A stretch of DNA of 54,792 nt from a virus (Duplodnaviria > Caudoviricetes), in IMG/VR virus record IMGVR_UViG_3300044785_000009, positions 1 to 54,792 of that record; one strand, given 5' to 3'. Below, one piece after another: positions 13,948 to 41,906 of this stretch. The notes beneath the pieces were generated by a model. It did not search any database. It was not told the origin of the DNA and saw only the letters and a program-made list of their open reading frames with translations. Position numbers and translations under genes: made by a program. Positions within the stretch are counted from its first letter, which is position 1. Each line of letters opens with the position of its first letter.

Positions 13948-16332
13948 CTATAAATCACCCCAGTTCTTTCCGATGGATAGATCTACGGGCCAGGGAACAT
14001 AGTCAGTGAACTTGCTGCCTTCCTCGGCCATGACCGAAGAGAGTATCTCCCCGACTTCGGTGGCCTGTACTTCCTTGCACTCGACAACCAGAGCGTCGTG
14101 AATTGTAAGCCGGATAAATCCCAAACCACGAAGCATTGGTCGCACGCGGATAAGTGCGGATAGACAAATATCGGACGCAGTAGATTGTGGCAGATAGGAC
14201 AAGGCTTCATTCATCACATCCTTCTTGTTCTGTTCAGTAATCAACCAGAACCTACGGCGGCGACCAAATGGTGACACAAGAGGATTGCCGCTCATTACTT
14301 GAGCCCTGACCATATTCTGCCATGCCATGACTTCAGGAAACAACCCTAGGAACTCTCGGTACTGTCGCTCGCCATCAGTCGCGGACAGACCGTATTCTTG
14401 TGCAATACTCCACGACTCTCGTCCATAAGCGATGCCGTAGAAGAATGCCTTCGTTCGAATGTACTCTTCCTTGCCCCAGCCTTCGCCGTAGAGTTGATCC
14501 GACAACTCGTTAAAGAACTTGTATCCTGGCGTCTGATTGCTGAGGATATCCCGAAGATAACTATCTTGGGCTAGCGTAGCCATGACACGAGCTTCAGCGT
14601 TAGCATAGTCACATTGGATTAGTACGTTGTCAGGATGTGTGACACTAAACTGTCGTCGGATCTCCTTATCACGCACAATGTTTTGAAGATTCGGATTTCG
14701 ACTCGCCAGACGTCCTGAAGTTGTACCGTGAAGAAGGTAAGTCGTGTAAATACGTCCACGGTACATTCGCTTCCGGATGCCAGCAATGTATGTACTATAG
14801 AGCTTGTGCTGTCGTCGATATTTGAGCATAGCTCCAATAAATCGTCGGCAGGCACTCCCTTCGTGCACTCTTCCGAGCAGCGCTGTGAGTGTCTCTTCAT
14901 TCGTAGACTGGACTCTGACATTCTGACTCTCCAGGTAGGCCTTGACCTGCATCGGCGAACGAGGATTGATTCCAGTCATCGGCACATCGAGATGACCTGT
15001 TGAGCCGATAACAACGTCTGCGATCTCCTGCTCGATCACTTCTAGGCGAGCGAGGTACTCACCCTCCAGCTTGAGCATATACTCCTTGTCGATAGCGATA
15101 CCATTCAGCTCGAGGAACATAAGCTGGTTAGCAGCCTTGACAAGGAAGTCGTGAACATGACGAACACCCTCACGCTCCATACTGGCAGTGAACAACTCCC
15201 ACAAATCCCACGTGCACACAACATCGTATGCATTGTACTTGTATAGGATAGGCCGCGGGATGTTCGCGTACGATCCTTTCTTCGGAATGTACTTCTTGAT
15301 GTCGTCATCGTACTTCGGAGCGCCTAGCTTCTCTACAGCCAGGACCTTAAGGCCGTGACCTCCAGGCCGCTCATCGAGTACGTAGCTGGCAAGCATTGTG
15401 TCACCCCAGAGCTCGAGGGTTCCGAGGGTTGGGAAAAGTCCGGCAAGATCAAATTTGCCGTTGTGTCCGATGAGTTGCTTGGATCGGAGGAGTTTCCGGA
15501 GAGCATTGACCACTGCTGGGAAGGTAAGTGCACTTTCACCCAGAACCACTGCTCGTCCTCTTGCGTAAGCAATTCCCACGCATAGAAGAGAATAGTTGTT
15601 CGGATGGTCAAACCCGACGTCTTTATCAAAACCGACTTCAATGTCAATAACGAGAGGTCCCTCCAACTCTCCTAGTTCATCAATAATTCGGAGCGCTTGA
15701 TCAGGATCGTCAAATGCTCGCCAGATAGGTTCACTCCAAGGCTCACGGTTACTCTCCTTCAGCTTTCCGATGTCAGATACGAGGGCCGGAAATGCATCTG
15801 CATTCCGGAGACAGTACGCTGGATGCCATGTCGGAATGACAGTCGCAGTATCTGCAAGGCCAGCGTTCGTAAGGAACCTTGCAGGTCGCTTGGGTGGACC
15901 GATACGAAGCGTGGTAATTGTACCTGGATCATCAACGAGTAAGGTCGATGCGGTGCCACCAAGTGCAATGATACTAGTAGACTCATTGGCGACGAGTTCG
16001 TTTGTGAGACGTCCACGACAAGCAACCACTGCAGCCTTAGGAGGAGTTGCGTTATCCGCAGGACGGCATAGACAAACATTGGTCAACATCACCTCCGATC
16101 GAGATACCCCATGATGTTTGAGCACGGTCGTAAGCAACTTGCCGGAAGGACCTGTAAAGGGAACACCCTTCGTCACCTCGTAGAATCCAGGAGCCTCTCC
16201 GACCAAAGCTATTCTACGTTCGCCATTCGACGCAGGCGGCCCCTGTGGGTGTTTAGTAGGCACCATCCCCTCGTCTCGCAGCGGGCAATGGCTACAGTCA
16301 GCACCTAAGTGCTCAGCTTTCATGTAGCCCAC
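13948..16332 (-). CDS. polA: family A DNA polymerase with N-terminal family-4 uracil-DNA glycosylase domain and 3'-5' exonuclease
   Basis: UDG: CSHC, GEAPG, PFTGPSG, N.CLCRP, HPAY. Exonuclease: DIE, HNGKFD, YNAYD. Polymerase: TTSGRLAS.NPNLQN, DYANAE, RTKAFFYGIAYG, IHDAL. Confidence 0.93.
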   Translation of the reverse strand: MGYMKAEHLGADCSHCPLRDEGMVPTKHPQGPPASNGERRIALVGEAPGFYEVTKGVPFTGPSGKLLTTVLKHHGVSRSEVMLTNVCLCRPADNATPPKAAVVACRGRLTNELVANESTSIIALGGTASTLLVDDPGTITTLRIGPPKRPARFLTNAGLADTATVIPTWHPAYCLRNADAFPALVSDIGKLKESNREPWSEPIWRAFDDPDQALRIIDELGELEGPLVIDIEVGFDKDVGFDHPNNYSLLCVGIAYARGRAVVLGESALTFPAVVNALRKLLRSKQLIGHNGKFDLAGLFPTLGTLELWGDTMLASYVLDERPGGHGLKVLAVEKLGAPKYDDDIKKYIPKKGSYANIPRPILYKYNAYDVVCTWDLWELFTASMEREGVRHVHDFLVKAANQLMFLELNGIAIDKEYMLKLEGEYLARLEVIEQEIADVVIGSTGHLDVPMTGINPRSPMQVKAYLESQNVRVQSTNEETLTALLGRVHEGSACRRFIGAMLKYRRQHKLYSTYIAGIRKRMYRGRIYTTYLLHGTTSGRLASRNPNLQNIVRDKEIRRQFSVTHPDNVLIQCDYANAEARVMATLAQDSYLRDILSNQTPGYKFFNELSDQLYGEGWGKEEYIRTKAFFYGIAYGRESWSIAQEYGLSATDGERQYREFLGLFPEVMAWQNMVRAQVMSGNPLVSPFGRRRRFWLITEQNKKDVMNEALSYLPQSTASDICLSALIRVRPMLRGLGFIRLTIHDALVVECKEVQATEVGEILSSVMAEEGSKFTDYVPWPVDLSIGKNWGDL

Positions 16333-17175: not shown

Positions 17176-17486
17176 TAGTTCCCCAGTCCCATAAATCCTG
17201 CAGCGTTCATGAATGGTGTACTTGTAGGAGCACCTTCACCATCAGCGATGACTTCTCGGATACGCTCCTGAAGTAGTCGTAGCTTGATAAAGGTGTACCT
17301 AGCATAGTTCGCTAGGTCGACGATCTCGTCTAGAGCTTCCTCCATCGTATCGACAATAAGGAAGTTGCCAGGACCATACTTCTCGGCGCCTACTAGATGA
17401 CGCTCTTCGCACGCAGCGTCGAACTCTTCGCTGAAGCCGACGATGATCTCGGCAATGCCCTTCTCTGCTTCTTCTGTCTCTGCCAT
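17175..17486 (-). CDS. small all-alpha NTP-pyrophosphatase (MazG-superfamily)-like protein
   Basis: R...G.EKYG followed by the acidic helix EEALDEIVDLANY. Confidence 0.55.
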   Translation of the reverse strand: MAETEEAEKGIAEIIVGFSEEFDAACEERHLVGAEKYGPGNFLIVDTMEEALDEIVDLANYARYTFIKLRLLQERIREVIADGEGAPTSTPFMNAAGFMGLGN

Positions 17487-18046
17487 TAGTGACTCCCGTT
17501 GAGTCTGCTGAGGAATTCGGCCTTAGCTGTACGAGTATGATCGTTAAACACGCCAGACATCGAGGCTGTGTACGTCTTCGTGCCCGAACTCTTGACGCCC
17601 CGAATCGACATGCACATGTGTTCGGCTTCGAGGACGACGGCAAGTCCTCGAGGTACTAGTCCTTCCTCGAGGAAGTCGGCGACCTGCTTCGTCAGTCGCT
17701 CTTGCAGCTGCAGACCGTGAGCGAAGTGTTGTACGACCCTCGCCAACTTGCTTAGGCCAACGAGTAGCTCTCCTGGAACGTAGCCGATGTGAGCGACTCC
17801 GAAGAAGGGAATGACGTGATGGTTACAGAGCGAGACGAATTGAATGTCTCGCTCGATGATCATCTCGTCGGTTCCATCGTTGTTGAAGACCTTCCACTTG
17901 ATTGGTGGAGGTGTCGTAAGCTCCTGCAACATCTTGACGAAGCGCGTAGGAGTATCTTCACCGTGCTGATCGTGAATGTCCAGGCCAGCTGCTAGTCGTA
18001 GCAACGTACTAGCAGCTGCGACAGCTTCACGTTCGTCAGGTGTCAC
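17486..18046 (-). CDS. folE: GTP cyclohydrolase I
   Basis: TP.R, SLCNHHVIPFFG..HIGY.P, GLSKLAR, QLQERLT, HMCM..RG. Confidence 0.95.
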   Translation of the reverse strand: MTPDEREAVAAASTLLRLAAGLDIHDQHGEDTPTRFVKMLQELTTPPPIKWKVFNNDGTDEMIIERDIQFVSLCNHHVIPFFGVAHIGYVPGELLVGLSKLARVVQHFAHGLQLQERLTKQVADFLEEGLVPRGLAVVLEAEHMCMSIRGVKSSGTKTYTASMSGVFNDHTRTAKAEFLSRLNGSH

Positions 18047-18378
18047 TGCTGGCTCCTCGGGTGATCAGTGGGAAGTGGCTTGAGAGCAGCCTCTTCGACG
18101 TTCTCGCGAGGAATGACCATCTTGCGGACCGTTCTACCAGTAGCATCCTTGACGTGAATCGCGACGAACTGATCCCAGCGGAAGGGTACGAGCTTCTTGC
18201 CACCGAGACGAGCATGTCCCGTACCGGTTGACCGTGTCAGGTTGAACTTCTTGTTGCGGAGCGTCGTACGGTTCGGAATGCGTTGCGGCTTGAACTTCTG
18301 CTCACGCAGCTCCGAAGCAATTGACTTATGTTCAAGCTCGGCGTTGAGTGCGATCTGAGCACTTAGTCTGTTGTCCAT
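18043..18378 (-). CDS. basic hypothetical protein within the preQ0 cluster
   Basis: Start MDNRLSAQ coupled to the queE stop by TAATG. Its stop overlaps the folE start. Confidence 0.6.
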   Translation of the reverse strand: MDNRLSAQIALNAELEHKSIASELREQKFKPQRIPNRTTLRNKKFNLTRSTGTGHARLGGKKLVPFRWDQFVAIHVKDATGRTVRKMVIPRENVEEAALKPLPTDHPRSQQ

Positions 18379-19130
18379 TACTTGTCCTTGTCGTCGCCCC
18401 AGAGGAGCACGTGCGAACGGAAAGTGACGCCATAGCCACGACAAATGGCCCTGTCGGCGAACAGCTGCGCAGTTGCGATGTTCTTCTCGGTCTTAGACCC
18501 TTCCGGCATAATCATGACTCGCCGTCGAGGAATGTGGCAATCGTTTACGATCAGGTCGATCTCGTCGAAGTCAGGGCCTAGTGTTTCAGGCGTGACCACG
18601 AACTTGAACCATGCTTTGCCTGTGCCGTTCAAGAGGCGAAGTACTTCAGGACGGTACCTCATCTCCTTTCGGTTGCCGCTCGACTCGAGCTTCGGCGAAA
18701 CGTTGTACTGAGTAACTACACGATCGAACTCGTACGTAGGTGCGATTGTTCCAGCCGTTTCGATGTGAATCTCGTTACTCCAATTGCGAAGAGCCCTACC
18801 GAGGTGCGTTAAATCCACCTGTTGAATCATTGGCTCACCACCAGAGATCACGACGATGGTTGGGTACTCCTTGTAGTTCCAGAGTTCGTCGATTTTCTTC
18901 AGAACAGTATCTAAATCCATCTCCTTTAGACCGTATGCCGGATCGTATCGATCGTACTGGATGCCGCTCTGGGTCTTGGCTGCACGCTCAGGAGTGTCGG
19001 CCCAGGTGTAGGCCGTATCACACCAGGTGCACGACAGATTGCAGTTGTACGTACGAACAAAGACGCAGTGCCTCCCAGCTGCTGCGCCCTCGCCCTGGAT
19101 AGTAGGACCAAAGATCTGACTGATCTTCAT
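18378..19130 (-). CDS. queE: 7-carboxy-7-deazaguanine synthase (radical SAM)
   Basis: IFGPTIQGEG, CNLSCTWCDT (CxxxCxxC), ISGGEP, IETAG, VSPKL. Confidence 0.95.
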   Translation of the reverse strand: MKISQIFGPTIQGEGAAAGRHCVFVRTYNCNLSCTWCDTAYTWADTPERAAKTQSGIQYDRYDPAYGLKEMDLDTVLKKIDELWNYKEYPTIVVISGGEPMIQQVDLTHLGRALRNWSNEIHIETAGTIAPTYEFDRVVTQYNVSPKLESSGNRKEMRYRPEVLRLLNGTGKAWFKFVVTPETLGPDFDEIDLIVNDCHIPRRRVMIMPEGSKTEKNIATAQLFADRAICRGYGVTFRSHVLLWGDDKDK

Positions 19131-19612
19131 GGCAGGATGTACTCCGCTCCGTTAGTCCCCGTCTCTTGGATACTTACTAGTACCTCATTGATAGCGCCAC
19201 TGATGTTCATGAACGTTTCGTACATCTCGTCACAGATCCACTTGGCGAGATTCTCAGTCGTTGGATCTCCCGACCAGACCTGTAAGCCAGGCAGGCGTGA
19301 GTAGATAACATCTGCCGCGCCAAGCTTCGAGAGCCCCGGCCGTGCCGACCACGTACGCAGCTGGTTAGCCCACACGTCGTCGACGTTGAGGTGCAGATGG
19401 TGATCGAGCTTCTCGTCGATGTATCCGCGGAAGATCTTTTTGACAGCTCCGAAGTCAAGACCGGCGAGGATGCCATTCTTGTCGAGACGACCTTCGATCG
19501 TCAGTTCGATCTGAAGTGAGTGTCCATGAATGTTCTGACATTTGCCGGGCAGCAAGCTGAGACGGTGTGCGATCTCAGCATTGTGTCGAACGAAGATCCT
19601 ACTTGTCGTCAC
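19127..19612 (-). CDS. queD: 6-carboxy-5,6,7,8-tetrahydropterin synthase
   Basis: AHRL, KCQNIHGHS, DF..VK, LDH, PTTEN, ET motifs. GTG start at 19612 with AAGGAGG RBS. Confidence 0.92.
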   Translation of the reverse strand: MTTSRIFVRHNAEIAHRLSLLPGKCQNIHGHSLQIELTIEGRLDKNGILAGLDFGAVKKIFRGYIDEKLDHHLHLNVDDVWANQLRTWSARPGLSKLGAADVIYSRLPGLQVWSGDPTTENLAKWICDEMYETFMNISGAINEVLVSIQETGTNGAEYILP

Positions 19613-20048
19613 TAGATGTTGCCTCCTTGTGAGCATAAGAGGCCTCGCCGGCTGCGAGTGAAACGTCCTCGGCCGCATCCATAGTCTCTTGGTCGACCTC
19701 GTCCTTCTCTTCCTGATCGATCGGATCGTTGAGGTGAGCATGCACAGCTGCGAGCTTATTCTCGATCATCTGAATGCTGTCCGCTTCGAGATTCAGTGTC
19801 TCGATCGGATCAGTGAGAGGATCTGGCTTGACGGCGACCGTCTCGATATAGTGGACACCGGCAGGAATGAAATGAGCGTACTTCACGCCGTCGCGGTAGA
19901 TGCAGAGGAACGCACCTTCGATGTTCCAGCCGTCGAACGTGGTGAGCGATATGAGTGGAACTACGTCGTCAGCGTATAGCTTGACCTCGTACTTCACGGG
20001 GTTAGGCATTGTGAGTTCCTCTGAACTGCCCAAGAATATTTCAGCCAT
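19599..20048 (-). CDS. acidic hypothetical protein between queC and queD
   Basis: ORF overlaps both neighbours in operon fashion. Confidence 0.65.
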   Translation of the reverse strand: MAEIFLGSSEELTMPNPVKYEVKLYADDVVPLISLTTFDGWNIEGAFLCIYRDGVKYAHFIPAGVHYIETVAVKPDPLTDPIETLNLEADSIQMIENKLAAVHAHLNDPIDQEEKDEVDQETMDAAEDVSLAAGEASYAHKEATSSDDK

Positions 20049-20911
20049 TAGTTGTTCAACTCTCTCTGCGCGATATCCTGCCGTTGCGCTTCTGCAACAA
20101 CGACCTTCCAGTACTCGGTGTCGTCGTAGACAGTCAGGTCGCAGATCAAGGGTCGTCTTGCGGATGTTACGTCGTACTCCGTACAGATGATGTCATACGC
20201 ACCATTGATTGCCTCGAGCCGCTCGACACAAGTGCCGCAGCGACCGCAGTGATTCTCGCCGCCCTTATAGCAACTCCACGTCATGTGAAGTGGTACTCCG
20301 AGGACGAACGCACGATAGGCGATGTCCATCTTTGAGTGATGCAGATATGGTGCCTTGATGTACTTCATCAGCAGAGTACCCTCATTCTGCTCGGGAATCG
20401 GGCCGAAGCCTTCATTGCCGAGTACAACAGCGCCATTGGCTGCAGCGATGAAGTGTGGACGACAATCAGGGTAGACCACGTGATCACCTGCGTGGACGGC
20501 TGTTGCGATCCCGTCGAAGCCCCGATTCACAGCAACACCAGCAGCGATCGACAGCATGATCATGTTGCGGTTTGGAACGACCGTGAGCTTCATGTTGTCT
20601 TCGGCGTAGTGACCTTCAGGTACCTCGATCTCCTGACGTGCCTGCGCGTCAGGACCGTCCGAGGTCATAGCACTAGTAAGGGCCGAGTTGCTGATTAGCT
20701 TCGCCAGACCACTCAGGTCGACGACGTCGAACCGAAGACCAAGCTGAGACGCCATTGCACGGGCGAAGACGAGTTCCTTCTTGTGTCGCTGTCCGTAGTC
20801 GAACGAGATGATCTCGAGGTCATAGCCTTGACTGCACAAGTCGTAGACCATCGTCGTACTATCGAGGCCACCACTAACTACTGCTACTACTTTTGGCATT
20901 GTCATTAACAA
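20048..20911 (-). CDS. queC: 7-cyano-7-deazaguanine synthase
   Basis: SGGLDS, FDYGQRH.KE, VPNRN, YPDCR, TWSCY, HCGRCGTC.ER. Confidence 0.96.
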   Translation of the reverse strand: MLMTMPKVVAVVSGGLDSTTMVYDLCSQGYDLEIISFDYGQRHKKELVFARAMASQLGLRFDVVDLSGLAKLISNSALTSAMTSDGPDAQARQEIEVPEGHYAEDNMKLTVVPNRNMIMLSIAAGVAVNRGFDGIATAVHAGDHVVYPDCRPHFIAAANGAVVLGNEGFGPIPEQNEGTLLMKYIKAPYLHHSKMDIAYRAFVLGVPLHMTWSCYKGGENHCGRCGTCVERLEAINGAYDIICTEYDVTSARRPLICDLTVYDDTEYWKVVVAEAQRQDIAQRELNN

Positions 20912-31576: not shown

Positions 31577-31716
31577 TGGACGGTCGAGGATTCGAACCTC
31601 GGTACTTCCAGGAACCACTCGCTGTGCTTTACGGTCGCCTCCTGCAGGGGAAGACGGTATGTCATCGTAAAGTCAGGAATAGCCTTGGAATCGCTCTACC
31701 ATTGAGCTAACCGCCC
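31577..31716 (-). ncRNA. tRNA-like element B (140 nt) with greatly extended anticodon arm and G3:U70
   Basis: GGGCGGT/ACCGTCC-A acceptor, GCTC-AATGGTA-GAGC D arm, CGAGG-TTCGAAT-CCTCG T arm. Confidence 0.8.
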
Positions 31717-32511: not shown

Positions 32512-32551
32512 GCGGGATCTTGAAGTTTTTTATGGGGCTCTTTTTGTTACG

Positions 32552-32627
32552 CACGCCTGGAAGGATTCGAACCTTCACTTCCTGTTGCCCTCTGGTAAAG
32601 GCGGCTACCTAGCGGTAGCTCAGGCGC
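32552..32627 (-). ncRNA. tRNA-like element C (76 nt)
   Basis: GCGCCTG/CAGGCGT acceptor, GAAGG-TTCGAAT-CCTTC T arm, non-canonical D and anticodon hairpins. Confidence 0.65.
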
Positions 32628-37783: not shown

Positions 37784-38210
37784 CCTCTGGTTCCCCTTCC
37801 ATGTTCTGGGCGTCGAACTCGTCTTCCCGCTGCCGTATCTGGGCTGCCAGCTTTTCCTTCTCCGTCTTAAAGTACTGGAAGCCGAGTTCGTTATCGCCCA
37901 GGCTCTGAGTCCAACAGTATAGCCCTTCCAACGAGGCTCGCTTTAAAATGCGGATCCTCATTGCTTCTACGGACCGTGGAACTTGCGCCGTTAGACACTC
38001 GATGATGTGGTACTTACCATCCGTCCATATCTGCCAAGGGTAGATCCCCGGTCGACCCGGCTTCCTCCCTATCTCCCTATCTCCCATAACTACGGGGAGA
38101 TAGGGTAGAACCCCAGATTTAGGTAATTGGGGACTTTGGGGGTAATCGGTATGTTCCGCTAGGGCTGCAAGCTCTTCTGGTGTTACCCACTCGTCTCTGG
38201 ACGTAGCCAT
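37770..38210 (-). CDS. hypothetical protein, possibly DNA-binding
   Basis: GRP..YPW..W.DG motif. Directly under the promoter at 38256-38285. Confidence 0.6.
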   Translation of the reverse strand: MATSRDEWVTPEELAALAEHTDYPQSPQLPKSGVLPYLPVVMGDREIGRKPGRPGIYPWQIWTDGKYHIIECLTAQVPRSVEAMRIRILKRASLEGLYCWTQSLGDNELGFQYFKTEKEKLAAQIRQREDEFDAQNMEGEPEDGTD

Positions 38211-38255
38211 TGGAATATGCCCCTTTATGCTGCCTAATAAAAACCTCTTACCTAA

Positions 38256-38285
38256 ATTATACCCTGAAACTCCCTATGACCACAA
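38256..38285 (-). promoter_or_regulatory. leftward promoter TTGTGG-N18-TATAAT
   Basis: Repeated promoter family (TTGTGGTC). Confidence 0.6.
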
Positions 38286-38782
38286 GGGGGCGATTTTCTA
38301 TACCAAATCGGTCTAAATCCCCCTGAATTCGCCCATAATTTCACTAAAATCCTGTGAATGCGACAACGTGCCTCCCTCTCTCCCCGCAGGTTCCTTTATA
38401 TTAGAATGTACATATGGTGTTATAATACTATAGACGTAGTGACAATTGGAGGTATCCATTTGTTACACAGATAAAATAGCCAACGTTTTACTAGAGATTA
38501 AAGCTCCCTATCTAATAAAACGTTTTATTAGGCAGTTCGCCCACCCAACCCCGCTGCCCCCGTGGGTGTTTTGGCTCCCTTAGACCCGGGGTCGTCCCCA
38601 GGATGCCGACTGCCCGGGGCACGCTCGTGTAGCGGCACCTGGCCCGGGGTCGGACCCGACCTGTTTTTCAAGATCCGGAGGGTACCCTTCCGATCCGGAT
38701 TTTGGGCAGGTGGGGGTCATCCTCATACGGTCCACCGTTCGGACCGGAGGCTTCGTTACGCTTTACTCGCCGCCGCGATACT

Positions 38783-39104
38783 CGATATGGGCACTTGGAG
38801 CTGCTCGTCCAGGTACTACTGGGGCTTTACTTACCTGTTAGTAGGGGCGATACCCAACTCGATCTCTACCTGCTTGATCGCGGCGATCAGCAGGCGACCC
38901 ATCGTGCACTCTGTCTGGATGATCCTCCAGACATCGTCCTCGTCGACGTGCTCAACGCAGATCTCGCAATCCGAGGAGTGCTCGGCCCACGCATCACTGG
39001 TATCGATCAACCAGTTCCACATCTCGGGGTTGGGAATGTTATCTACCATGACTGCTCCTTTGTCCGATTCTGGCCTGGACGAGCAGCTTCAGGAACCCAT
39101 ATCG
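38783..39104. repeat. 31-bp inverted repeat pair 1 (38783-38813 / 39074-39104) enclosing one gene
   Basis: CGATATGGGCACTTGGAGCTGCTCGTCCAGG vs CCTGGACGAGCAGCTTCAGGAACCCATATCG, 27/31 complementary. Confidence 0.9.
38831..39049 (-). CDS. small putative Zn-binding early protein
   Basis: AAGGAG RBS, H...CEIC...C..G.LLI. Confidence 0.7.
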   Translation of the reverse strand: MVDNIPNPEMWNWLIDTSDAWAEHSSDCEICVEHVDEDDVWRIIQTECTMGRLLIAAIKQVEIELGIAPTNR

Positions 39105-39105
39105 T

Positions 39106-39385
39106 AACCAAGTCGCCTTAGGACCGCTCGGACCCTGTTACCTTACTTGGAGGTGTTCTTGACTTCCAACATCCGTGTTATCAAGATCCAACCATCCAAG
39201 CACTTCAGGTTGTAAAGATCCTTACCTTCCGTGGCCCACAGCTCGCAGATCTCGCATCGCTTGCCGTGGGTAAGTACGTCCGTCATCGCATCGGCCAACT
39301 TGACTGGCTTACCAATGGGAATCAACATCTCGTGCTCCTTTGTCCGATTTTCGGGGGGCCCGAGCGGTCTTAGGACGACTTGGTT
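39106..39385. repeat. 30-bp inverted repeat pair 2 (39106-39135 / 39356-39385) enclosing one gene
   Basis: AACCAAGTCGCCTTAGGACCGCTCGGACCC vs GGGCCCGAGCGGTCTTAGGACGACTTGGTT, 26/30 complementary. Confidence 0.9.
39143..39328 (-). CDS. small putative Zn-binding early protein (paralog of 38831-39049)
   Basis: Same 17-nt leader, H...CEIC...C..G..LI. Confidence 0.7.
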   Translation of the reverse strand: MLIPIGKPVKLADAMTDVLTHGKRCEICELWATEGKDLYNLKCLDGWILITRMLEVKNTSK

Positions 39386-39388
39386 CGT

Positions 39389-39871
39389 GATCAGGTAGCT
39401 TCGGGGAGGTCCGGGTGGTTACTACTTGTGGATCTTAATTACTTGTACTGGTGGTACGCCGAACTACATCTGGAGGTCAAGCTCCATCTGGTTCGGGTCG
39501 ATCTCTGTGATCTGGTTGATCTTGATTCCATTACGCGTGGCGTAACGGATCACGAACTCCCGCACCTCGTCCGCGGTAACCTCACGAAGCGACGTGCCGA
39601 AGATCTTCTCGCCGCGGACGATAAGTCCGTTGCGGAGGTAGTTGTACATCATCTGCGGGCGGATCTTCTCCGCGCCACCCTGCACCAGTACTGCGTTCAG
39701 GACGGTGTGGATCCCGTAGCCGGTGTACGACTCCTTCGTGACCAGCCGGTCGAGGATCTCGTTCCACGAGGAACGGATCTCGTCGGTGATCTCGATCTTG
39801 GTACCAGACATTTGGTGCTCCTTAGGTAGGTACTACATGGTCCACCCGGACCCCCTCGGAGCTACCTGATC
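39389..39871. repeat. 30-bp inverted repeat pair 3 (39389-39418 / 39842-39871) enclosing one gene
   Basis: GATCAGGTAGCTTCGGGGAGGTCCGGGTGG vs CCACCCGGACCCCCTCGGAGCTACCTGATC, 27/30 complementary. Confidence 0.9.
39464..39811 (-). CDS. early protein, putative HTH-like DNA-binding protein
   Basis: TAAGGAG RBS. PQMMYNYLRNG motif shared with 31916-32437. Confidence 0.7.
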   Translation of the reverse strand: MSGTKIEITDEIRSSWNEILDRLVTKESYTGYGIHTVLNAVLVQGGAEKIRPQMMYNYLRNGLIVRGEKIFGTSLREVTADEVREFVIRYATRNGIKINQITEIDPNQMELDLQM

Positions 39872-40070
39872 CCTATCTCTCCCTGTGTAATTGTTAAGGT
39901 ACGATTGCCTACAACTCGTCCGTGTAGCCGATGGACGCATCGATGATCGTGTAGACGTTTCTTGCTGGCGATAACTATATTATAGTGCAGGTTTCAAGAT
40001 CTTTAACCCCCCGAGGGTCTTAGAAGCAAGCGAGATATTTTCAAGGTGAGCAGGTTATATAGAAACAGAT

Positions 40071-40152
40071 AGACGTTAGTTAGACAAATCAGGTATACTT
40101 TCTACGTAAACGCGCTAGTAACACATCTCTCTTGCTATCTCTCTTGTCTAAT
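40071..40152. repeat. dispersed palindromic element, copy 4, in the divergent control region
   Basis: AGACGTTAGTTAGACAAA ... TATCTCTCTTGTCTAA. Confidence 0.7.
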
Positions 40153-40244
40153 CATCTATCTCTACTAATCCTAGCACTAGAGATAGCGGTGACAATGAAA
40201 TAAAGTAACGTACGAAGGAAAAAATGCATTTGTTACTCAGATAG

Positions 40245-40282
40245 AGTGAATTGTTGCCTAAAAAGTAAAGATAGGAGAGAAT
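40245..40282 (+). promoter_or_regulatory. putative late promoter
   Basis: AGTGAATTGTTGCCT, identical to 51733-51747. TTGCCT-N17-GAGAAT. Confidence 0.5.
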
Positions 40283-40307
40283 AAAGTTGAGAACCCAGGA
40301 GGGTACG

Positions 40308-40706: not shown

Positions 40707-41906
40707 ATGCAGAAGATTATACCAACGGCGGTCATAGCGATTGTCGTGGGAATCGCAGGGGTCGTAGCGTTTACGCCTGCGCGCCAAGAAGGTGTCGCCC
40801 AGGTAGTACCGTTCGGAGATAACTGCACGCGAGTAATTCAGGTGGATGGTAGTTCAGACATCCATTGTCCTCCACCGCCAACCGTGGAGCCTACGATTAC
40901 GCCGACAGTTACGCCAAGTCCGACGGTAACCGCGAGCCCTACTGCAACTCCGAGCCCATCTCCGACCACGACTGCACCACCGACCACGACTCCGGCGCCT
41001 ACAACGAACCCACCGACTACCACGCCAGTACCGAGTCCGACACCGACTACTACACCACCGGGAACCATTACGTTTCCGGGCGCTTTTACTACTGGGGTCG
41101 GCCCGTTCTGGGTGGCTAAGACGACCTACACCAGCGATCTGGTGGTCAGCACAGCTGGCGCTATCGTGGAGGATGCAGCGTTCCTTAACGGGGCCGACCT
41201 GCTCATCCGCGCGCCCAACGTAATCGTGCGGAGGTCGGTGTTTCAGGGTGGCTCGATCGACAATGATCAGGTGGCCGGCAGCTGCCACGGCACGGTGATC
41301 GAGGATGTTTCGATGCTGCGCAACCCGGCCGTGCTGACCACGCAGAACGACGGGCAGGCGATCGGGACCGGTGGCTACACGGCGCGCCGGGTGAAGATCG
41401 ACGGGCCCACCGAGGGGTTCCGGATCGGCGATAAGGCCAACTGCGGGCCGGTCGTCATCGAAGATAGTTATGCCAACATCGGCATCCCGCAGGCCGGCTG
41501 CCCCGGTGTTGCCTGGCACGGCGACGCACTGCAGGGCTACCAGGGGGCCGCGCTCACGGTCCGGCACTCCACGTTCGTCATGGACGGCACCACGGCCACC
41601 TGTGACGGCACCCGGCCGTTCTTCTATCCCAGCCAGGGCAACACGTCGGTCGACCTGGACGGGGTGCTGGCCATCGGCGGCTACTGGGACGCGTTCACCC
41701 TGGGCGAGCCCGGAGTAGCTCACAATATCTACCTGACACCGGCCCCCAACGGTCGGGGTGGCGCGCTGGACGTGAAGTGCTCCCTGTACAATCCAGCTTC
41801 GTCGGGCAAGTGGAGTGCATGGCGAGTTAGTGCGGTTGCCGGGGTCGGTGGGTACGCAGTCACCAAGTTAGCCGTGCAGCTGTGCAACACCGAGGGTGGT
41901 ATCTGA
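40707..41906 (+). CDS. secreted or membrane-anchored protein with Pro/Thr linker and right-handed beta-helix (pectate lyase-like) domain
   Basis: N-terminal signal/TM segment, PT-rich linker, VVIEDSY...HGDALQ...TVRHSTF beta-helix motifs. Confidence 0.7.
   Translation: MQKIIPTAVIAIVVGIAGVVAFTPARQEGVAQVVPFGDNCTRVIQVDGSSDIHCPPPPTVEPTITPTVTPSPTVTASPTATPSPSPTTTAPPTTTPAPTTNPPTTTPVPSPTPTTTPPGTITFPGAFTTGVGPFWVAKTTYTSDLVVSTAGAIVEDAAFLNGADLLIRAPNVIVRRSVFQGGSIDNDQVAGSCHGTVIEDVSMLRNPAVLTTQNDGQAIGTGGYTARRVKIDGPTEGFRIGDKANCGPVVIEDSYANIGIPQAGCPGVAWHGDALQGYQGAALTVRHSTFVMDGTTATCDGTRPFFYPSQGNTSVDLDGVLAIGGYWDAFTLGEPGVAHNIYLTPAPNGRGGALDVKCSLYNPASSGKWSAWRVSAVAGVGGYAVTKLAVQLCNTEGGI

Follow-up and report, generated by a model that had tools for sequence, protein, structure and literature searches.

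An array of gene-enclosing inverted repeats with a conserved symmetric mismatch centre in an uncultured tailed phage: candidate sites of RNA processing

Introduction

In rRNA operons, the sequences flanking the 16S and 23S rRNAs pair over a long range into RNase III stems of at least 22 base pairs (bp) with dyad symmetry, which follow one another in tandem on one transcript, and a cut in the stem frees the enclosed RNA. A similar arrangement is found around three small protein genes in the virus record IMGVR_UViG_3300044785_000009 of IMG/VR, a linear tailed-phage record of 54,792 nucleotides (nt), estimated to be 84% complete, which was analysed over its whole length and is referred to here as the window. 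At 38783-39871, three minus-strand genes each form the loop of an inverted repeat of their own, and every stem carries at its centre two mismatches set two pairs apart. Unlike the rRNA-operon stems, the loops are protein cistrons with their own ribosome-binding site (RBS), the arrays reach up to five cassettes in relatives, with only 0-4 nt from one to the next, the mismatch centre is conserved, and cleavage is predicted. A first-pass annotation of this DNA, made from its letters, knew of no described phage architecture of this kind, and the full-text literature, with most subscription journals outside its coverage, gave none. The architecture is real, conserved and apparently undescribed.

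A comparable outcome is known from phage T7, whose polycistronic early transcript is cut by the host RNase III into individual mRNAs stabilised by terminal duplexes. The T7 sites are local intergenic hairpins with an asymmetric internal loop, where a single strand is cleaved and no gene is enclosed; in the window, the arms stand 220-423 nt apart, a gene lies between them, and the irregularity is symmetric. Pairing between the two untranslated regions (UTRs) of the Staphylococcus aureus icaR mRNA reportedly masks the Shine-Dalgarno sequence and represses translation, with RNase III acting on the pairing, whereas the RBS of the present cassettes is free in the loop, at a median of 32 nt inside the stem. 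The pairing of the icaR 5′-UTR with the 3′-UTR of the same mRNA is described in a paper that also mentions RNase III (PMC3868564). Long-range intramolecular mRNA duplexes, between segments more than 100 nt apart, are likewise cut by RNase III in Bacillus subtilis, with a 2-nt 3′ overhang, according to Taggart et al. 2025 (PMC11780869). Unlike the phage array, those sites are scattered, mostly within or across genes, paired at the cuts, and no covarying repeat with one gene per stem (PMC11780869). The general principle of phage mRNAs cut by RNase III into duplex-stabilised products is set out in Nicholson's review (PMC3867540).

Integron cassettes are also arrays of single, promoterless small genes, with sites conserved in structure rather than in sequence. 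IntI recombines their attC sites, local hairpins that separate one cassette from the next and bear characteristic unpaired bases. Unlike them, the arms described here enclose the gene and the layout is translation-aware, while no integrase (no PF00589 match) was found in the record and no local hairpins at the 1-3-nt junctions. The PeSL cassettes of T4-type phages are said to share promoter-terminator motifs repeated in direct orientation; in the window, the sole direct repeat between cassettes is a 17-nt RBS block, and the arms are unique to each cassette. As reported in two studies (PMC2839356, PMC4122927), those cassettes resemble the present locus in their small novel early genes, hyperplastic region, structured borders and modular shuffling. 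The archaeal bulge-helix-bulge is, in turn, a two-fold symmetric irregularity centred in a gene-enclosing stem, where it marks symmetric cuts. It consists of two 3-nt bulges 4 bp apart that are cut by the splicing endonuclease, whereas the present centre is made of 1x1 mismatches 2 bp apart and belongs to a bacterial virus. Its part in archaeal pre-rRNA processing is mentioned in PMC3867540. A miniature inverted-repeat transposable element (MITE) or an insertion sequence (IS) would be a poor description of the array, with arms unrelated between cassettes, no consistent flanking duplication and no transposase families in the record. An example of an element with terminal inverted repeats is MPME of the mycobacteriophages. 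A retron msr-msd unit is equally unlike the locus, where the loops are coding and have an RBS, and no RVT_1 match was found in the record.

Results

The first-pass annotation had pointed to three abutting inverted-repeat pairs, and a repeat search returned exactly these, with gaps of 1 and 3 nt. In the order of the sense (minus-strand) RNA, stem A has its 5′ arm at 39842..39871 (central CCGA at 39856-39859) and its 3′ arm at 39389..39418 (central CCGA at 39401-39404), and encloses a gene for 115 amino acids (aa) of family F1 (39464..39811) with the RBS AAGGAG at 39818-39823 and a conserved core R-P-Q-M-M-Y-N-Y. Stem B, with the 5′ arm at 39356..39385 (central CUAA at 39370-39373) and the 3′ arm at 39106..39135 (central CUAA at 39118-39121), encloses the gene of a 61-aa CxxC protein of family F7 (39143..39328). 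Stem C has its 5′ arm at 39074..39104 (central CUGA at 39089-39092) and its 3′ arm at 38783..38813 (central CCAA at 38795-38798), around the gene of a 72-aa CxxC protein of family F5 (38831..39049). As proposed, all three loops thus hold a single open reading frame (ORF) on the minus strand, preceded by AAGGAG. The arms of stem A are 30 nt long and 90% complementary, those of stem B 30 nt and 87%, and those of stem C 31 nt and 87%. Each stem counts 12 pairs in its outer part; stem B has one G.U wobble among them, and stem C has a wobble plus one more mismatch. Then come, in all three stems of the window and on the sense strand as first described, the shared C.A mismatch, two pairs and the A.C mismatch, followed by an inner part of 14-15 pairs, which includes one G.U wobble in stem A and likewise in stem B.

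Chance can be excluded on four grounds. In a scan of the whole window with a 10-nt seed and arms of at least 20 nt lying 60-4000 nt apart, the three pairs were the only long-range inverted repeats. The cassettes fold far better than their dinucleotide shuffles, with z-scores of -8.10 (A), -6.45 (B) and -6.70 (C), and the shuffles folding as well amounted to 0/100, 0/100 and 0/200, respectively. Folding of the array on both strands, a check suggested with the first description, placed all three stems in the minimum-free-energy folds of 1,116 nt for either strand, so that the array folds into three abutting lollipops. Finally, each of the six arms pairs with its own partner only, with duplex scores of 22.8-24.3 vs at most 9.9 for non-cognate arms. 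The inverted repeats are therefore real and far beyond chance. The only sequence common to cassettes is an identical 17-nt block with the RBS, before both CxxC genes (39053-39069 and 39333-39349). Rfam families gave no match in 38200-40300, and a role of the stems as intrinsic terminators was rejected, there being no U-tract behind the 3′ arms.

Relatives were reached through the F1 gene. A profile built from 30 metagenomic homologues found 25 viral and 57 metagenomic loci which, together with the first locus, made 83 loci to be scanned, some of them the same contig fetched twice. With arms of at least 24 nt and loops of 120-700 nt, 91 distinct gene-enclosing stems were recovered, the three of the window included, of which 78 were left after removal of near-duplicates. 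Their median length is 31 bp (range 25-41, 10-90% range 27-36) and the median loop 328 nt. Among 58 distinct F1 genes with full flanks, 42 lie in a stem whose score none of 290 shuffles reaches, two further stems were missed solely through the search window, and 14, mostly the most distant homologues, have no stem. Arrays of up to five cassettes occur, and of 44 pairs of neighbouring stems, 27 abut with a spacing of -1 to 9 nt. Of the relatives, two were fetched in full; G005 is complete and G001 85% complete, and both carry such stems at this locus only, whereas a more distant 79-kb phage (G003) has three stems at its F1 locus and, far from it, a second array of five abutting cassettes (L098:12598-14937, corresponding to G003 52598-54937). 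The architecture is therefore not tied to F1. U.U makes up most of the central mismatches of this second array, and its wobbles in the flanks are biased towards the coding strand. Next to it, inverted repeats of 33-61 nt are densely nested (L098:10355-10892). In the A+T-richer relatives (L006, L007, L009, L034-L036 and L039), many stems share a AAATCCGG / CCGGATTT pair at the loop-side end, and a related TATGTCCGGATTT motif recurs in the spacers; these elements may be a shared protein-binding or promoter element.

The arrangement of mismatch, two pairs and mismatch is present at the centre of 42 of the 78 stems. C.A followed by A.C accounts for 24 of them, U.U followed by U.U for five, mixtures of C.A or A.C with U.U for eight and other types for five, and the reversed order, A.C then C.A, occurs in none. 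In most of the remaining 36 stems (28, counted by hand), one lone mismatch, of the type C.A, A.C or U.U, lies 10-19 pairs in from the outer end, and only one stem of the 78 is perfectly paired. Both arms read 5′-Y-C/U-Y-R-A/U-R-3′, a motif with two-fold symmetry in which pyrimidines lie 5′ and purines 3′ of the dyad; over 84 half-sites, the six positions agree in 76, 79, 73, 73, 79 and 76 cases. On the outer side of the motif the stem counts 12-14 bp, on the inner side 13-16 bp. Judged from these counts, the symmetric centre is a conserved, orientation-specific motif. The C-N-N-A centre described in the first-pass annotation has thus kept its conservation, symmetry and orientation, whereas the motif itself proved wider, C.A is often replaced by U.U, and the full mismatch pair is absent from 36 of the stems.

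Covarying arms in related phage contigs, for which a search had been suggested at the outset, were found in 36 non-redundant orthologous F1 cassettes and within seven cargo families. In the orthologous cassettes, the 5′ arms have a median best-register identity of just 0.43, while the match of an arm to its own partner is 0.94 (minimum 0.90), vs a mean of 0.56 to the arms of other cassettes. Covariation was measured on a MAFFT alignment of the 36 cassettes (A2), with the 30 pairs of the window's cassette as reference. Paired cells made up 82.4% vs 53.7% in shuffles, and doubly changed cells numbered 265 vs 89, a value reached by 0 of 500 shuffles. The covariation score was 0.479 vs 0.149, and at most 0.133 with the partners slid by 1-3 columns, and compensatory change was seen at 29 of the 30 pairs. 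Unpaired cells are most frequent in the two columns that correspond to the mismatches (14 and 21 sequences). RNAalifold returned no consensus pairs on all 36 cassettes, probably due to gappy arm columns; run de novo on 21 of the 36 sequences, it predicted the terminal stem, interrupted where the mismatches lie. Within the seven cargo families, the arms are 90-95% paired at an arm identity of only 0.26-0.38 (0.74 in F7). On the strength of this compensatory change, the stems are a selected structure. A variant contig from one soil DNA run, covering 38736-39154, has 23 differences, all of them in the 72-aa ORF (38848-39002) and none in the arms.

The cargo of the stems consists of small proteins of at least 22 families, many of them with CxxC motifs, and it varies between relatives in number and order of cassettes, a point that the first-pass annotation had suggested checking. 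The order F1-F7-F5 is found in the window and in L032, F1-F5-F7 in L056, F1-F5 in L014, and F3-F2-(about 195 nt)-F1 in L009. The three cargo proteins of the window, including the CxxC proteins of stems B and C, matched no Pfam or PHROG family. Family F1 counts 296 representatives at E of at most 0.001, all of them small proteins, with weak matches to DUF1836 in 15 of 72 sampled members (best E = 1.7e-4) and to HTH_17 in 3 of 72; a PDB profile search and the ESM Atlas returned nothing usable for F1. These weak matches make F1 possibly a small helix-turn-helix (HTH) protein of the MerR/DUF1836 kind, which would point to a small early regulator that binds DNA and not to a factor of RNA processing.

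The layout of the cassettes takes account of translation. From the end of the 5′ arm to the start codon the median distance is 32 nt, and from the stop codon to the start of the 3′ arm it is 14 nt. Stop codons in all three frames precede the 3′ arm in 21 of 75 cassettes, where 200 shuffles gave 3.4 on average and never more than 8, and come from a stop-rich AGUAAGUA-like tract. This spacing of RBS and stop would keep initiating and terminating ribosomes off the stem, which argues for a function in the translated sense RNA. A reading at the level of the sense RNA also rests on the orientation of the genes, on the interchange of C.A and U.U, both pyrimidine mismatches, where an antisense RNA would have to equate G.U with A.A, and on terminator-like hairpins that face antisense transcription.

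Discussion

The best reading of these results, to which a probability of roughly 50% may be given, is that the stems are processing sites in the sense RNA, cut by a host dimeric double-strand-specific ribonuclease of the RNase III type, which would produce monocistronic mRNAs with paired ends. The array would be transcribed as a single sense RNA from the minus strand, in which each gene, together with its RBS and its stop-rich tail, would be the loop of a stem of ~30 bp formed by its own flanks, and the mutual orthogonality of the arms would let the transcript fold as a string of abutting lollipops. The symmetric centre would then be targeted by a dimeric endoribonuclease specific for double strands, most likely the host RNase III, cutting both arms with a 2-nt stagger, presumably between R and A on each arm. 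The released mRNAs would start with the mismatched A or U and have their ends held in a duplex of 13-16 bp. Such a duplex would protect them against RNases that depend on an end and would make the fate of one cassette mRNA independent of the others. We infer the action in the sense RNA, the enzyme, the cut positions and the stabilising effect, and the processing mechanism is plausible but unproven.

The geometry fits, as the first-pass annotation had seen, in that the two-pair spacing of the centre matches the 2-nt stagger of RNase III. A two-fold symmetric helix of ~30 bp with the halves of the element two pairs apart would suit a dimeric enzyme of this type. In common with the stems of rRNA operons, those of the window (30-31 bp) form a helix of about two turns or more, with compensatory pairing; the positions adjacent to the presumed cuts are not paired as in that class (42 of the 78 stems, plus 28 with one mismatch). 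Neither RNase III nor a domain that binds double-stranded RNA (dsRBD), RtcB or an RNA ligase was found in the record, and therefore a host enzyme would be needed. The further suggestion of ligatable or circular mRNA ends found no support, as no RtcB or RNA ligase family turned up in the record. The ends left by RNase III (5′-phosphate and 3′-hydroxyl) are not substrates of RtcB. The idealised substrate of the Escherichia coli enzyme is two-fold symmetric and measures 22 bp, according to PMC3867540. In ~90% of the in vivo sites of that species, pairing extends over the two positions that the staggered cuts enclose (PMC6212723).

Several observations weigh against cleavage by such an enzyme. The full motif is missing from 36 of the 78 stems, one of which is perfectly paired. 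In vivo sites of E. coli (PMC6212723) and B. subtilis (PMC11780869) have their cut-adjacent positions paired in more than 90% of cases. In the phage stems, the cut-adjacent positions are mismatched, a comparison made between predicted cuts and a consensus that is the one of E. coli and B. subtilis and may not be the one of the host. Moreover, the mismatch has a C-G pair as its neighbour in about half of the half-sites, and this pair would lie at position 2 of the proximal box, where a GC/CG substitution is inhibitory in E. coli according to Nicholson's review (PMC3867540). The motif is not the known RNase III consensus, and where there are mismatches, the cut can be limited to one strand or be blocked. 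No RNase III or dsRBD family was found in the record, which is 84% complete by estimate. Nor does the pairing outside the centre settle the strand, with G.U vs A.C at merely 34:20 (p = 0.076), and true mismatches over all stems are fewer on the antisense strand, 128 vs 149 of 2,445 pairs, because C.A turns into G.U there. The sole metatranscriptome contig, 198 nt long (39644-39841) and 100% identical, has its end one base to the loop side of stem A's 5′ arm; nothing is inferred from it, because DNA contigs of comparable depth break at many places nearby and contigs cannot show RNA ends.

A serious rival, if an unlikely one, is that the stems are never cleaved and act as end-to-end clamps that evade RNase III and hold the flanks of each cistron together in the polycistronic RNA, as a folding insulator, as a protection from endonucleases or Rho, or as a help in ribosome recycling. 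The central mismatches would then split the helix into halves of 12-16 bp, so that the host RNase III, which needs about two helical turns, could not cut. Indeed, the mismatches leave no register of 20-22 uninterrupted pairs, real RNase III sites are normally paired beside the cuts, and the C-G pair beside the mismatch in about half of the half-sites points the same way, as do the many stems with a single mismatch only. Antideterminants, and the uncoupling of binding from cleavage by structure, are established for E. coli RNase III in the review cited above (PMC3867540). However, a pure disruption of the helix would need neither a motif specific in sequence and orientation, such as the YCYRAR seen over 84 half-sites or the 24 cases of C.A then A.C against none of the reverse, nor the exact spacing of 2 bp. 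Besides, a single 1x1 mismatch is usually tolerated by RNase III.

Processing by an RNase III-type enzyme also has to be weighed against a distinctly unlikely alternative, in which the centre is the site of another dimeric factor, either a dsRNA-binding protein of the host or the phage or a nuclease of an unknown family, that would regulate the translation or decay of the cassette RNAs. The difference between the motif and the E. coli and B. subtilis RNase III consensus would be accommodated in this way, and the window offers many unannotated small early proteins, yet no candidate was found among them, the record holds no dsRBD, and the cargo protein F1 looks, weakly, like an HTH protein that binds DNA rather than RNA.

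It is quite improbable that the stems are the ends of a new kind of gene cassette, which would excise cistrons from the RNA, maybe with rejoining or circularisation by a host ligase, and would also bound the gain, loss and permutation of cassettes. If they were, such stem-bounded cassettes would be an RNA-first or single-stranded DNA (ssDNA) analogue of integron cassettes, in the absence of a dedicated phage recombinase. Very improbable is a function purely in the DNA, where the arms would fold in ssDNA as attC does, or mark modules, for a structure-specific recombinase or nuclease to excise, insert or permute. The variation in content, number and order of cassettes between relatives, with 22 cargo families and arms that travel with their cargo, is what such sites would give, and DNA hairpins of the template strand would be slightly better paired, with C.A becoming G.T wobbles. 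Against this, no integrase, resolvase, Y1 (HUH) transposase or reverse transcriptase family was found in the record; target-site duplications are not consistent (mean 2.4 nt vs 1.9 nt at random positions); three DNA runs, seen as contigs at low coverage, are colinear, with no excised or rearranged junction; the spacing of RBS and stop and the multi-frame stops have no rationale at the DNA level; and the two relatives fetched in full hold such stems at this locus only. Since the arms differ from cassette to cassette, a recombinase with sequence specificity is excluded. The alternative of ssDNA cassette recombination offered in the first-pass annotation has thus gained no support. Site-specific recombination of double-stranded DNA, through a core of 4-6 nt in direct orientation within the inverted arms, was rejected too, since the cores of stem C differ (CUGA/CCAA) and each cassette would need a recombinase of its own. 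Least probable of all is a structure acting in antisense RNA, whose helix would be continuous but for a pair of G.U wobbles at the centre: the count of true mismatches (128 vs 149) and the continuous stems of the plus-strand fold favour it, but all cargo genes are on the sense strand, the interchangeable pairs would be the structurally unlike G.U and A.A, plus-strand terminator-like hairpins stand just upstream of the array in that direction (38550-38566 and 38647-38662), and the flank G.U pairs are favoured on the sense strand under two zone definitions (34:20 and 43:22), a bias shared by the five cassettes of the second array.

If the stems are processing sites, unique 30-bp arms with a 6-nt symmetric centre would be a short and transferable recipe by which one transcript gives monocistronic mRNAs with protected ends, a recipe kept across a lineage of uncultured soil and sediment phages while the arm sequences diverged almost wholly. 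The logic of gene-enclosing RNase III stems in rRNA operons would then extend to arrays of protein genes, and more than 70 natural orthogonal stems would be at hand for studies of double-strand-specific ribonuclease specificity and for the design of synthetic operons. If, on the other hand, the stems are uncut, they would show that long 5′-3′ clamps can coexist with RNase III. In either case, one stem per gene in a variable region gives a testable link from RNA structure to modular shuffling in the early regions of phages.

Other features of the record

The array stands at the head of a leftward (minus-strand) block, right after a divergent intergenic region (39872-40286). The plus strand codes for the terminase, a Mu-like portal and protease, the tail tube and the tape measure, in keeping with a tailed phage, and the long minus-strand block for PolA with an N-terminal domain of the uracil-DNA-glycosylase (UDG) superfamily, a primase, an SNF2 helicase, a PD-(D/E)XK nuclease and a 7-deazaguanine set (FolE/QueD/QueE-like/QueC). 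The large terminase is nearest to those of actinophages, at 38% identity, and the polymerase is below 33% identity to that of any cultured phage. A search by DNA for cultured relatives gave no match, and neither did F1, F5 and a 146-aa neighbour as proteins among 50,697 phage records, nor F1 among 185,579 species genomes. The first 50 kb of Arthrobacter phage Wollypog, which has the nearest terminase, hold no such repeats.

Upstream of the array, an untranslated leader on the minus strand (39872..40195) is read from the sequence within the divergent intergenic region. Two candidate promoters lie there on the same strand: TTGTCA-16-TAGGAT (40195-40168), from a consensus scan whose hit count was not above that of its shuffles, and GTTAAA-17-TATAAT (40007-39979), read by eye. 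Downstream, the trailer (38520..38782, minus strand) is a G+C-rich, non-coding stretch of ~260 nt; the fold of 38500-38790 is not significantly better than its shuffles (z = -0.6), and two plus-strand terminator-like hairpins with T-runs, the ones at 38550-38566 and 38647-38662, are oriented against antisense entry into the array. Leader and trailer do not pair around the whole array (score 10.0 vs a null mean of 9.7), and there is therefore no outer stem. A 20-nt motif occurs in two copies, 90% identical, in the intergenic regions on both sides of the array (38454-38473 and 40224-40243), with one copy upstream of the array and the other upstream of the minus-strand operon that comes next, and may be an operator or promoter element.

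Elsewhere in the record, an Rfam tRNA match of 42.7 bits and 140 nt lies at 31577-31716 on the minus strand, where ARAGORN makes no call; its anticodon-arm region measures 84 nt vs 15 in the model, an insert of ~69 nt. Conversely, a tRNA at 32551-32627, also on the minus strand, is called by ARAGORN with an anticodon of four bases (acca) and no assigned identity, and is not reported by Rfam. The genes for GTP cyclohydrolase I, a radical-SAM QueE-like protein, PTPS/QueD and QueC at 17486-20911 on the minus strand make up a 7-deazaguanine pathway, which suggests that the phage DNA is modified. The family A DNA polymerase and its N-terminal uracil-DNA-glycosylase-superfamily domain are encoded by a single ORF of 794 aa (13948-16332, minus strand). 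On the plus strand, directly behind a small terminase-like gene, a 399-aa protein (40707-41906) has a long Pro/Thr-rich linker of actinobacterial style.

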